From: TPA_inf: Saccharomyces
Lineage: Eukaryota
NCBI GenBank assembly: GCA_000146045.2
Contig: BK006935.2
Span: 32,001 to 96,000, forward strand
DNA length: 64,000 nt
Direction of reading: 5' to 3'
The position numbers were made by a program, and so were the translations under genes. Within the stretch, counting starts at the first letter, position 1; each line of letters starts with the position of its first letter. Below the pieces are notes generated by a model that was not told the DNA's origin, did not search any database, and saw only the letters and a list, made by a program, of their open reading frames with translations. This document shows positions 33,778 through 37,525 of this stretch, one piece after another.

Positions 33778-35520
33778 TCAGCGAGTTTTCTTGAGGTTGC
33801 TACTATCATTAAAATCACAATCCACAGAGGAAGTTGATCTCTTTTTCAGTTGGGTGGGGGCAGAGCATGGGTGAGCAGTGGCCATGGGTCTAACAGGAAA
33901 TAATCTTTTTGAACGCACAGATAAATTTTGTAATAATTTTCTATTTGACATTAGAGATGGGGTGGTGGGAGTTAGTGGGCTTGGCCAAAAGATGCTTGAA
34001 TTTTGTGGGATGCTCAGTGACCTTTTAAAAGAATTTTGGGTAGAAGAGAACGAACCTGAATGTGAATGGTGTGATGCAGAGTCTGGGGTCGTCATTGAAC
34101 TTGAAGTCTTGTAAGGGGAATTGAATGGAGATGGAGAGGATGAAGATGAGGTTGGAGTGAAGGCAAATGGTGGAGAAATGCTATCTTTGGTCAACCTTCT
34201 TAAATGAGTGTGATCCGAGAAATAGTCTGTGGCCGCAGATGAAACCGTAGCGCTCTTTGGAGTAGTAGCATTTGAGTAAACACAAGTCAATGAATCGCTG
34301 TCAAAGGACTGAGCAAAGATAGTATTGTACATGGTTTCCAATTCTTGTGAACGGTAGAATTCTTCCAGTTTCAATTGAATACAATAGTTTTGTAATGCGT
34401 CTAAGAGAGATTTTGCTAAAGATGTCTTATTGCTATTCAAATATTTTGATTTGAAACTGGAGGGGAAAGAATTTTGGTCCATTGCTATATCCAATAAAGT
34501 ATTAGAGATTTCTGACAATTTAATATCTAGGTCTTGGCAGTTTTCCTCCAAAGCCAGATTGATATTTTCCCAAAGGTTTGAATTATAGTAGTTCAAAGAT
34601 AATTTGATGAGGTTAATTGCACCCAGCGCAATTAGTGAACGATCATATTTAAATGATAATTCGAGATTGAAGGAAGCTAACTCGCACAACATAATGGCAC
34701 CCAATTTGATCTCGTTGATGTTCAAAGAGGGGCCTTGAGAAGAGGACGATTTATTAATAGCAGTACCAGCAGCGTTATTTAATAAGGCCAGTTTCTGTTG
34801 AATGAAAGCTTCCAAAGGGGCAGAAAGGACAACGCCAGGCGATAACGGGGACGTAGATTGGAACAAGAAGATGTCGATGTAGGAGTCGAATGTTGCCGAC
34901 TGACAGATGGACCAATCGAGTGATTTGAAAAGATGCATTTCCATAGTCGTGAATTGCTTTATAGAATATTGATTGCAACACAAGTTTTGCAAGACTTTCA
35001 AAGTGGCCATTCTATTCTTGGAGTCCCAAAATTTGGACGAAATCCAAAGCGCGGTCAAGGACAAGAGCTGGTAGTTGTAACTCTTGATAATGAACCGCGA
35101 GGAATACTTGTCCAAGATAGTGAAAGTAAGGAACAAAGTCGAGGTCGATAGATTGAGTCTTGTGTGACAGTACATGATGAAGTCAAAGATCAAGAAACGC
35201 ATCTTCGGATTAACTTGTGGCTGAGAGTTGAAGTTAGTCAGGTTGTACAGCGGCCTTTCTGTGTGGGAAAGACGGAAATAGTGGTCCAATTGATCATTAT
35301 TGTATTCGCTGATCGCTGAGTGATGTGCTTGCAATTCTCTTTTAACGAGATTAGGGTTTTTAGACTTTGCACTAGCAATGGCCCGCCTCTTTTGCAAGAG
35401 CAAGGGCAAATTAGGACATGAGGCAGCGCTGACAGAGGCGGCAGTGGCGGTGGAAGTGCCACTAGCGGTAGCATACCTTGCATTAGCGTATCTAATTATG
35501 GTATCCTTCAATATGGCCAT
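33778..35520 (-). CDS. CLN3: G1 cyclin, 580 aa
   Basis: Cyclin box MRFLIFDFIMYCHTRLNLSTSTLFLTFTILDKY... and a C-terminal PEST-rich region. 580 aa. Confidence 0.95.
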   Translation of the reverse strand: MAILKDTIIRYANARYATASGTSTATAASVSAASCPNLPLLLQKRRAIASAKSKNPNLVKRELQAHHSAISEYNNDQLDHYFRLSHTERPLYNLTNFNSQPQVNPKMRFLIFDFIMYCHTRLNLSTSTLFLTFTILDKYSSRFIIKSYNYQLLSLTALWISSKFWDSKNRMATLKVLQNLCCNQYSIKQFTTMEMHLFKSLDWSICQSATFDSYIDIFLFQSTSPLSPGVVLSAPLEAFIQQKLALLNNAAGTAINKSSSSQGPSLNINEIKLGAIMLCELASFNLELSFKYDRSLIALGAINLIKLSLNYYNSNLWENINLALEENCQDLDIKLSEISNTLLDIAMDQNSFPSSFKSKYLNSNKTSLAKSLLDALQNYCIQLKLEEFYRSQELETMYNTIFAQSFDSDSLTCVYSNATTPKSATVSSAATDYFSDHTHLRRLTKDSISPPFAFTPTSSSSSPSPFNSPYKTSSSMTTPDSASHHSHSGSFSSTQNSFKRSLSIPQNSSIFWPSPLTPTTPSLMSNRKLLQNLSVRSKRLFPVRPMATAHPCSAPTQLKKRSTSSVDCDFNDSSNLKKTR

Positions 35521-35823
35521 CGTACAGAAAGCGTATCAAATCAGTGTCTTGAACGAGAGTAAAAGGGAGATGCAATGGAATGTAAGAAATGCTATGGGTC
35601 AGAAAAGAAATGCAGAGGAGTTAAACCGAATGAGGAAATGCAATGGATACGTTAAATTGGAGATGTGAGATTGCGACTGGGACTCGGATGGATGCTTGCT
35701 TTTGGATGCTAGTACAGAGAAAAAAGAGGGAGAAAAGAAAAGAGAAATAGAAAAAGGTTGGTTTAAGTCGGCAGAGGAGACTACTCGGGCAATTCGTTTC
35801 CTAATGGGTATAGTCCTCTTTCC

Positions 35824-35835
35824 TCAGAAATCCAT
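35824..35835 (-). promoter_or_regulatory. CLN3: Three-codon uORF (ATG GAT TTC TGA) in the CLN3 5' leader at -315
   Basis: The + strand 35824-35835 reads 'tcagaaatccat'; its reverse complement is ATGGATTTCTGA. The A of the ATG lies exactly 315 nt upstream of the CLN3 start. A translational-control uORF at -315 is established for CLN3. Confidence 0.75.
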
Positions 35836-36097
35836 TTGACTGGCAGACTCAGTAGTAGAAGAAAAAATCAAGAAAGAAATTGTGTGAAAGTATACTACAC
35901 AAGAAAATGTTTAAGAAGAAGATTAAAAGCTCGAGGAAAGTACAGATATACAAATTATAAATAGGTAGGAGGAAGAAAAAAAAAAGATGAGGGCAAAAAC
36001 CCAAGGCCAAATATGGAAATGTGGCAGAGGGACACACTAATCCGATAGTAAATTTATGTAACTTGATCATTACAGTGAGAGCAGGCTTGGTAATTTC

Positions 36098-36142
36098 TTT
36101 TTCTTGCCTGATAATTTTTCACTTTTTCTTTTTTTTTTTCTT
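36098..36142 (-). promoter_or_regulatory. CLN3: Three A2GA5 (AAGAAAAA) repeats in the CLN3 sense orientation; candidate Azf1 / glucose-response elements
   Basis: The + strand TTTTTCTT occurs at 36098-36105, 36123-36130 and 36135-36142, which places the repeats -578 to -622 from the CLN3 ATG. Confidence 0.45.
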
Positions 36143-36409
36143 GAAAGTTCACAATTTAGGGTTTGAGCACAGCGTTTGGTTGCGACACTTCCCCAGAAGG
36201 AAAACCGGCCTCTTTGGCTGGGGAGGGAAGAAGGGGGAGGAGAGCTCAGAAAGCCCTATCGCGATATGAGGGACCGATCTGTATCAGCATACTTTCGGTA
36301 TCATCACGGTCGCAGGATAGAGATAGTGAATGAGTTAGCTGTTTTACAGGCCAAGCGTTCAAACGAGACGAATGGCGACATTTGCCCGTCAAGAAAACCC
36401 GCCGAGTTT

Positions 36410-36425
36410 TTTCCTAAACGGGTAA
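36410..36425 (-). promoter_or_regulatory. CLN3: Early-cell-cycle-box (ECB; Mcm1 plus flanking) element about -890 from CLN3
   Basis: The minus strand reads TTACCCGTTTAGGAAA against the ECB consensus TTtCCcnntnAGGAAA. Confidence 0.55.
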
Positions 36426-36715
36426 AACAGCCATGCACCGCAGCACGTCGACGAGGTGATATTTCCAATTTGGGAAATTTCCCAAATCAGTAATGTAGCC
36501 TCTACGGGTGTCTCTGTCAGCCCCGTGGTCGCCAGCACAGAATGTATCGTACCCCTGAAGGTAGTTTTTTACCGCCGTGGCACACGATAAAGGTGCACCT
36601 TGTGATAATAAGGTGGAAAAATATATATGAAAAAGTGAAATTGATTGTGGCTGCACTAGGACATCATTATTTCTTACTTGGCTATTTACACGTACTTACG
36701 CTGGCTGTATATCAT

Positions 36716-37525
36716 TTAAGGGGCGGAGGACGAAGAGGACGGACCCGAGATCATCCGGTCCAAGAAACGGGTCATCCGGTCCTTAGCATTGTCTAGACTA
36801 TCTAGGGCAGGACGGACATCCACGTGGAAAGTAGGCATTCCGTTTTCGTCGTCGGGCCCTCCGTAGAAATCCAAGACGTATCTAACTTCCTTGAAGGTTG
36901 GAGGTTGTTGTTCCGCTTTGCGCTCGCCTCGGAGTACAATCCAGTCGTGCCTGTCGAATGGTAGTTCTTGGCTAAAATGGGACGGAAACAGTAGGCCGCA
37001 CAGGTGCATCCAGCGAGCACGAGGGCTCAATACGCCCGGTTTCCCCATGAATTTCAGCAACTTAGGCTGCACGTGGCTTTCATCTGTGTGCGGTTTTTCC
37101 CATTCGAGCACTTCCTGCCAGCACCCTTCATTTAGAAAGTTGTGGACCTGCACCATGGACTCCACTGCATCTTCGGCGACTTCGCCGCTACCGCCAATCT
37201 TGCCCTTTCTAACCATAGCATTGTACATCTGTTGTGGAGAAGGATACTCCCAGAACTCGTTACTGTCTGGACTCTTGGGGATGCTGGAGATGGTCCGATC
37301 AACGGGCAAGTCCATCTTTTGGCCAGGCTGTTTGGATGCTGCCAACTCCGGCATATTGTTCAGCGGGTTTATTCTATCGTTATCTCCCTGCATAACGGGG
37401 CACTCAGAGGATGGTGGCGACGACGACGACGACTCGTGCATGACTGGGCACCCTGACATGGATGATACTGCTGCCCCACCAATATCTTTGCCCGTAGTTT
37501 TTTGATCTGCCCAAAACCAACCCAT
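36716..37525 (-). CDS. CYC3: Holocytochrome-c synthase (cytochrome c heme lyase), 269 aa
   Basis: Two CPV heme-regulatory motifs (SGCPVMHE and SECPVMQG) and the conserved CCHL core. 269 aa. Confidence 0.93.
   Translation of the reverse strand: MGWFWADQKTTGKDIGGAAVSSMSGCPVMHESSSSSPPSSECPVMQGDNDRINPLNNMPELAASKQPGQKMDLPVDRTISSIPKSPDSNEFWEYPSPQQMYNAMVRKGKIGGSGEVAEDAVESMVQVHNFLNEGCWQEVLEWEKPHTDESHVQPKLLKFMGKPGVLSPRARWMHLCGLLFPSHFSQELPFDRHDWIVLRGERKAEQQPPTFKEVRYVLDFYGGPDDENGMPTFHVDVRPALDSLDNAKDRMTRFLDRMISGPSSSSSAP

Follow-up and report, generated by a model that had tools for sequence, protein, structure and literature searches.

Known control elements of the CLN3 promoter and leader, and the possible concerted evolution of a double early cell cycle box

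How much of the control of a G1 cyclin gene can be recognised in the DNA that precedes it, and whether any part of what is recognised there is new, are questions raised by the interval between CYC3 and CLN3 on chromosome I of Saccharomyces cerevisiae. The interval occupies positions 35521-36715 of a 64,000-nucleotide stretch of contig BK006935.2 (positions 32,001 to 96,000 of the forward strand), referred to here as the window. An initial annotation had proposed that these 1.2 kb lie between CLN3 and CYC3 and control CLN3 through a short upstream open reading frame (uORF), Mcm1-type boxes and A2GA5 repeats, and every sequence that it quoted was found where it had been placed. The most probable reading, to which we assign a probability of roughly 90%, is that the interval is the promoter and 5' leader of CLN3, working as published. 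The uORF, the Mcm1 boxes and the A2GA5 repeats are real, conserved and already published, and the functions proposed for them are supported both by published work and by the footprinting described below. For this reading, the sequences, coordinates, enrichment and seven-species conservation come from the present analysis, and factor binding and phenotypes are taken from the literature.

The identity of the locus follows from its open reading frames (ORFs). The CLN3 coding sequence (33778-35520, minus strand), taken from the ORF list, encodes a G1 cyclin of 580 amino acids with a Pfam Cyclin_N domain (E=1.4e-23) that is 99% identical to proteins named S. cerevisiae Cln3p in public sources, and the CYC3 ORF (36716-37525, minus strand) encodes a cytochrome c heme lyase of 269 amino acids. 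These two are flanked by a CDC24-type RhoGEF upstream and a pyruvate kinase downstream, and the domains found (Cyclin_N, cytochrome c heme lyase, CDC24 and pyruvate kinase) confirm the genes of the window as CDC24, CLN3, CYC3 and CDC19 of S. cerevisiae chromosome I. In addition, a published primer for the CLN3 leader, CGTACAGAAAGCGTATCAAA (10.1101/240713), is identical to positions 35521-35540. From the ORF identities and the primer match, the 1195 bp of 35521-36715 are the CYC3-CLN3 intergenic region, as initially annotated, and since both genes lie on the minus strand the interval holds the 3' end of CYC3, the CLN3 promoter and the CLN3 5' leader. All positions with a minus sign are counted from the A of the CLN3 ATG (35520, +1).

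Conservation was assessed by aligning the orthologous regions of S. paradoxus, S. mikatae, S. kudriavzevii (two strains), S. arboricola, S. eubayanus and S. uvarum, with S. cerevisiae supplying the reference positions; one divergent S. cerevisiae strain (L015) was also compared. Two alignments were used, a first one of five species and one of seven Saccharomyces species, in which ~46% and 41%, respectively, of the S. cerevisiae intergenic positions are invariant.

On the published model, CLN3 would be controlled at several successive points along this interval. In the distal upstream activating sequence (UAS; ~-975 to -890), constitutively bound Mcm1 would activate transcription at M/G1 from a cluster of early cell cycle boxes (ECBs), with Yox1 and Yhp1 repressing the cluster at other times and Bck2 competing with Yox1/Yhp1. 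The A2GA5 block (-622 to -578) would be bound by Azf1 and respond to glucose, and the core promoter (~-440), with its conserved TATA box and adjoining Xbp1 site, would be followed by a leader of ~360 nt. In this leader, the 3-codon uORF would capture scanning ribosomes, reducing the number that reach the CLN3 AUG, and would do so disproportionately when ribosomes are scarce; through this stronger effect at low ribosome availability, the synthesis of Cln3 would depend on the rate of growth. Whi3, in turn, would have a handle on the CLN3 mRNA in the GCAU repeats (-189 to -53). The four elements re-identified here belong to a system that would couple Start to growth (the uORF), to mitotic exit (the ECB/Mcm1 boxes) and to glucose (A2GA5/Azf1). 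As a positive control, all four were placed to the base from the letters of the DNA alone; they add nothing to what is known of CLN3.

The uORF, ATGGATTTCTGA (ATG GAT TTC TGA; 35824-35835, minus strand, -315 to -304), begins exactly at -315, as had been claimed, with the A of its ATG at 35835, 315 nt upstream of the CLN3 ATG. Its AUG and in-frame stop codon lie wholly upstream of the CLN3 ORF, with no overlap, and its ATG is the sole sense-strand ATG within 400 nt upstream of the CLN3 ATG. The leader is reportedly ~364 nt long (Polymenis and Schmidt 1997), and a leader of this assumed length has one ATG where mononucleotide shuffles have 3.7 (P(<=1) = 0.095). At -289 to -320 in all seven Saccharomyces species, the uORF is kept at three codons and in the context cAAATGG, and the codon changes between species are synonymous or conservative only (GAT/GAA, TTC/TTT, TGA/TAA). 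Conservation of the uORF among sensu stricto species had also emerged from previous comparative work (PMC1964767). The base mutated in A-315T is the A at 35835; this mutation, placed within the CLN3 5' leader, inactivates the uORF start codon and alters or narrows the growth-rate dependence of Cln3 protein, with mRNA unchanged (10.1101/240713, a 2018 preprint; also reviews). The uORF found here is identical to the published one in sequence and position, and nothing differs; what is added is its conservation in seven species and a conserved block of ~35 nt on the 3' side of its stop codon.

As in GCN4-type and YAP1/YAP2-type uORFs, the CLN3 uORF is very short, lies far upstream of the main AUG and lets fewer ribosomes through to the main ORF. 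The GCN4 arrangement, however, is a reinitiation switch of four uORFs that responds to eIF2 phosphorylation, whereas CLN3 has a single uORF with a proposed dependence on ribosome abundance (10.1101/240713). In S. kudriavzevii (-379/-374, two strains) and S. eubayanus (-350), an extra upstream ATG opens an ORF of 19-43 codons that spans the 3-codon uORF; the position of the start site would decide if this ORF is part of the mRNA. Further afield, 3-codon uORFs lie upstream of CLN3 in N. castellii at -399 (ATGCTACCGTAA) and in T. globosa at -242 (ATGAGGATGTGA, in a tcaaATG context), with ECB-like boxes further upstream in both; it is uncertain whether these uORFs are homologous to that of S. cerevisiae. 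The DNA upstream of K. lactis CLN3 has neither a 3-codon uORF nor ECB-like boxes.

Directly 3' of the uORF stop codon lies the block GGAAAGAGGACTATACCCATTAGGAAACGAATTGCC (35788-35823, minus strand, -303 to -268), which is almost invariant in seven species. In the five-species alignment, 25 of 27 positions are invariant at 35800-35826 (-306 to -280), a segment that takes in the uORF stop codon and the next 24 nt. The block holds an ECB-half-like sequence, ACCCATTAGGAAA, and a 2-mismatch ECB match (35797-35812), and it might influence reinitiation or serve as a downstream DNA site; no described function for it was found. RNA structure was considered as a cause of the conservation and rejected, with a weak consensus fold and z-scores of +0.1, -1.9 and +1.5; covariation around the uORF is absent because the block is invariant.

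The ECBs of M/G1 genes (SWI4, CLN3, CDC6, CDC47) are Mcm1 sites repressed by Yox1/Yhp1 (McInerny 1997, MacKay 2001, Pramila 2002, cited in PMC3649975/PMC12239796). The CLN3 promoter is known to have six ECBs, the mutation of which lowers expression and abolishes the association of Bck2 with the promoter, and both Mcm1 and Yox1 have been detected there by chromatin immunoprecipitation (ChIP; PMC3649975, PMC12239796). In addition, the M/G1 expression of CLN3 is driven by Mcm1 via the ECBs (Di Talia 2009). The boxes of the interval resemble the known element in being 16-bp sequences of the form TTtCCcnntnaGGAAA with a CC-N6-GG MADS core, present in several copies in the CLN3 UAS and conserved in their cores. 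They differ from it in having no adjoining YAATTA sequence and in the fusion of two boxes, head to head, into a zero-spacer 32-bp palindrome with covarying arms.

The box that had been annotated as an ECB at 36410-36425, here called ECB-A (TTACCCGTTTAGGAAA, minus strand, -905 to -890), matches the strict consensus TTWCCCNNNNAGGAAA at all 16 positions, and is the only zero-mismatch ECB in the 64-kb window. A second box, ECB-B (TTTCCCAAATTGGAAA on the CLN3 strand; 36462-36477, minus strand, -957 to -942), matches the same consensus at 15 of 16 positions, and both boxes match TTWCC-N6-GGAAA without mismatch. When up to two mismatches are allowed, the window has 18 ECB matches, seven of which (~5 independent loci) fall within 35797-36477, where 0.19 would be expected (Poisson P ~2e-6). 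The intergenic region likewise has seven CC-N6-GG cores as against 2.0 expected; the only two of these kept in every species of the five-species alignment are those of ECB-A and ECB-B, and both are kept in S. paradoxus and S. uvarum too, and hence in all seven Saccharomyces species. In ECB-A the flanks and the N6 spacer vary between species and the core is fixed. Judged from the alignments, the conserved feature of these ECBs is the geometry of the Mcm1 core, not the full 16-mer. Adjoining the 5' side of ECB-A is a block, GCGGTGCATGGCTGTT (36426-36441, minus strand, -921 to -906), that is better conserved than ECB-A itself (15 of 16 positions invariant in five species).

Two further candidate Mcm1 sites lie closer to the gene. 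One is a perfect CArG-type core of the form CC-(A/T)6-GG, CCATATTTGG (36007-36016, -496), situated between the A2GA5 block and the TATA box; the core is present in four of the five species of the first alignment, and its left flank CTGCCACATTTCCA is invariant at 12 of 14 positions. It is possibly one of the six published ECBs. The other, TTTCCTTCTGGGGAAG in the sense orientation (36188-36203, -683), is ECB-like with one mismatch, has its core in three of the same five species, and is a zero-mismatch ECB in S. eubayanus. The correspondence of individual boxes to the six published ECBs is inferred.

Three observations weigh against the published model. Firstly, the whole-box identity of ECB-A and ECB-B (9/16 and 11/16 positions invariant, respectively) is no better than the regional average. 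Secondly, no YAATTA site for Yox1/Yhp1 was found in the flanks of any S. cerevisiae box; Yox1 can, however, be anchored through Mcm1 without a site of its own (PMC12239796), so that YAATTA is not obligatory. Thirdly, the effect of A-315T on the growth-rate dependence of Cln3 is partial, and additional mechanisms were inferred by the authors of that study (10.1101/240713).

The part of the interval that could matter beyond the published elements, and the only new point of this analysis, is the evolution of the double box to which ECB-B belongs. The 22-mer TTTCCAATTTGGGAAATTTCCC at 36462-36483 had initially been described as a near-palindrome resembling a degenerate Mcm1 P-box. Its sequence, its coordinates and its Mcm1-type character stand, but it is a good ECB rather than a degenerate P-box, as the last 16 bases of its CLN3-strand reading, GGGAAATTTCCCAAATTGGAAA, form a one-mismatch ECB, and the dyad axis had been misplaced. 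The larger axis of symmetry lies between 36477 and 36478, and makes ECB-B the right arm of a 32-bp zero-spacer dyad (36462-36493) with a perfect 20-bp core (36468-36487). The left arm, ECB-C (TTACTGATTTGGGAAA; 36478-36493, minus strand, -973 to -958), is a decayed third ECB, with an intact CC-N6-GG core in the other six species (for instance TTTCCGTTTCGGGAAA in S. kudriavzevii). The 20-bp core is the longest palindrome in the 64-kb window that is not of low complexity; the longest of all is a perfect 22-bp low-complexity sequence, ATATATGTATATATACATATAT, at 55804-55825.

The dyad is a perfect 32-bp palindrome in four of the seven species, with no asymmetry between the left and right arms of S. 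kudriavzevii (TTTCCGTTTCGGGAAA and TTTCCCGAAACGGAAA), S. eubayanus (TTTCCGCATCGGGAAA and TTTCCCGATGCGGAAA), S. arboricola (TTTCCGTTTTGGGTAA and TTACCCAAAACGGAAA) and S. paradoxus (TTTCCGATTTGGGAAA and TTTCCCAAATCGGAAA). S. mikatae has one asymmetry (TTTCCGTTTCAGGAAA and TTTCCCGAAACGGAAA), S. uvarum two (TTTCCGGATCGGGCAA and TTACCCAATCCGGAAA) and S. cerevisiae three (TTACTGATTTGGGAAA and TTTCCCAAATTGGAAA); in the divergent S. cerevisiae strain the dyad is decayed in the same way. The differences between species fall at arm positions 3, 7, 9 and 10, and are present in both arms. On a null model in which a palindromic ancestor gave rise to two independently evolving arms, an arm should be no closer to the reverse complement of the partner arm from its own species than to that from another species. 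The observed within-species total of this distance is 6, as compared to an average of 18.4 when the species labels are permuted, and a total this low arises in just 4 of 5040 permutations. Four of the 16 mirror pairs (10 cells) have changed on both sides, one of them appearing as TA, AT, CG and GC, and the covariation score of the dyad is 0.28 as against 0.106 in shuffles (0/500), a signal that collapses when the register is slid. Two short-read contigs of S. paradoxus end at the dyad centre, starting with TTTGGGAAATTTCCC, as expected of a true palindrome, which suggests that de Bruijn assemblers break at it.

How far the dyad extends beyond Saccharomyces was also considered. No comparable palindrome was found upstream of CLN3 in N. 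castellii, Nakaseomyces bracarensis, T. globosa or K. lactis, and a metagenome scan for further lineages with the dyad returned only S. cerevisiae, identical to the window. A description of the double-ECB palindrome was found neither in the searchable literature on CLN3, Mcm1 and palindromes nor by ECB sequence. A heat-shock element reading of the dyad (TTTCG GGAAA TTTCC CGAAA) was rejected: the dyad of S. kudriavzevii has four perfect nGAAn units, but those of S. cerevisiae, S. paradoxus and S. eubayanus have only two each and that of S. arboricola has none.

Short imperfect inverted repeats can be made perfect by quasi-palindrome template switching, in which one arm is copied from the other, a process described mostly for mutational hotspots of reporter genes and for large palindromes. 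Template-switch conversion would yield mirrored substitutions like those in the CLN3 dyad, but it would differ from the known cases in that two transcription-factor sites would have been its target for millions of years. An account for which the odds seem evenly balanced is that the head-to-head ECBs at -973 to -942 have evolved in concert across the whole history of Saccharomyces sensu stricto, with the central bases that Mcm1 does not constrain drifting and the drift mirrored in both arms. This could come about through templated re-perfecting (template switching or hairpin-directed repair) or through selected palindromy (a cruciform or hairpin), and S. cerevisiae would be the lineage in which the dyad is decaying. 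If true, the double ECB would be a clean natural example of a very short regulatory palindrome evolving in concert, and it raises the question of whether palindromy, beyond the presence of two Mcm1 sites, affects the timing of CLN3.

A more specific proposal, which is tentative and on balance doubtful, is that the palindromy is kept by selection for structure, either a cruciform that aids the loading of Mcm1 or a hairpin in an upstream transcript, with mutational homogenisation by template switching as the alternative to selection. In its favour are the compensatory double changes described above and the DNA hairpins predicted for the perfect dyads (-14.5 to -16.9 kcal/mol, as compared to -6.5 in S. 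cerevisiae). Against this, S. cerevisiae, S. mikatae and S. uvarum tolerate between one and three asymmetries, and the more distant yeasts do without the dyad. Moreover, the asymmetries are mostly transitions, and the strand on which these would give G:T wobbles differs from species to species, so that no transcribed strand is favoured and no evidence points to a hairpin in any one transcript. We favour a cause at the level of DNA, with either a templated process correcting the quasi-palindrome or selection acting on palindromy itself.

Downstream of the ECB cluster, the A2GA5 region (36079-36142, minus strand) carries three exact copies of AAGAAAAA, at 36098-36105, 36123-36130 and 36135-36142, corresponding to the three repeats at -578 to -622 noted initially. 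Azf1 activates CLN3 in glucose through A2GA5 (PMC2873916, PMC4046665), and the copies resemble the glucose-response elements described for Azf1 (Parviz 1998; Newcomb 2002, cited in PMC2873916/PMC4046665) in their location in the CLN3 promoter, downstream of the UAS and upstream of the TATA box, with the difference that conservation is limited to two of the three sense-strand copies. In five species, the copy at 36098 is invariant at 8/8 positions and that at 36123 at 7/8, as compared to 2/8 for the distal copy at 36135, which lies within a run of 11 A residues that varies in length and sequence between species. Two more exact copies, inverted, are present at 35859-35866 and 35973-35980. A2GA5 copies are not consistently present upstream of CLN3 in N. 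castellii, Nakaseomyces bracarensis, T. globosa and K. lactis.

The number of copies is in itself weak evidence, because the octamer is common throughout the window (34 matches as against 11.6 expected), and conservation provides the stronger argument: the block at -612 to -559 is invariant at 48 of 54 positions, is equalled by only 10 of 1142 windows of the same length, and is the best-conserved stretch of the promoter. It is unlikely that the A-rich block is chiefly a generic poly(dA:dT) tract that excludes nucleosomes, with the AAGAAAAA repeats incidental and not sites for Azf1. The commonness of the octamer and the variable A-run at the distal copy would both fit such a tract, and the poly(dA:dT) reading may hold for that run. 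It leaves unexplained, however, the invariant G, T and C bases of the proximal block, where the interspersed bases other than A (AAGAAAAAGTGAAAAATTATCAGGCAAGAAAAAGAAAT) hardly vary among seven species, which points to sequence-specific recognition; furthermore, the glucose induction of CLN3 has been attributed to Azf1 binding (PMC2873916). Both roles are compatible.

For ECB-A, a competing assignment arises from its overlap with a different motif. The sequence TTACCCG is the consensus of Reb1, and it occurs once in the region, at -905 (36419-36425, minus strand, -905 to -899), overlapping the box, so that the element at 36410-36425 could in S. cerevisiae be mainly a Reb1 site that sets a nucleosome-free region rather than an Mcm1 box. 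This is improbable, as TTACCCG is missing in the six other species, all of which have the CC-N6-GG core, and in the divergent S. cerevisiae strain a C to A change at -900 destroys TTACCCG but spares the Mcm1 core. A motif that is neither conserved nor fixed within S. cerevisiae was rejected as the explanation of ECB-A.

Finally, it is exceedingly improbable that the motifs are chance matches without function in AT-rich intergenic DNA, as might be supposed from the 34 window-wide copies of AAGAAAAA, from the lack of window-wide enrichment of ECBs at up to two mismatches (18 as against 14.5 expected) and from a single upstream ATG in 364 nt being only mildly unusual, since chance is excluded by the local clustering of the ECB matches and by the conservation of the CC/GG cores and the 3-codon uORF in seven of seven species while neighbouring bases vary, and is also contradicted by published mutational evidence (PMC3649975, 10.1101/240713).

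Several other known elements of the interval had not been listed by the initial annotation, namely the TATA box, the Xbp1 site, the Ace2/Swi5 sites and the GCAU/Whi3 cluster. The core promoter block (35941-35963, minus strand, -443 to -421) is invariant at 21 of 23 positions and contains the TATA element TATTTATAA in the sense orientation (TATAAATA antisense; -443 to -436), and a fragment from -472 to -389 has been termed the 'minimal core promoter' (PMC2873916). Just downstream of the TATA box, the Xbp1 repressor site CTCGAG (35930-35935, -415 to -410) is invariant in seven species; the Xbp1 consensus is CTCGAG/A, and Xbp1 has been found at the CLN3 promoter by ChIP (PMC3814307). The region also has three GCTGGS sites for Ace2/Swi5. 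One of these, GCTGGG (36217-36222, plus strand, ~-700), matches the conserved site of Di Talia 2009 at -701, and the related GCTTGG (36085-36090, ~-569) matches the conserved site at -569 of the same study, so that the numbering used here agrees with the literature.

In the leader, six GCAT motifs (GCAU in the mRNA) form a cluster at 35570-35709 (minus strand, about -189 to -53) that represents the Whi3/daughter delay element (DDE) repeats. Six copies compare with 1.05 expected (P=0.0004), and every species has 6-8 of them. According to Di Talia 2009, the DDE sites are part of the transcript, and the repeat in the middle of each is bound by Whi3. At the opposite end of the interval, the CYC3 stop codon and two conserved blocks, TAAATGATATACA and GTGTAAATAGCCAAGTA (36675-36718, minus strand; 12/13 and 15/17 positions invariant, respectively), make up a distal segment of ~45 bp that, judging from its position, probably carries the 3' processing signals of CYC3 rather than control elements of CLN3.

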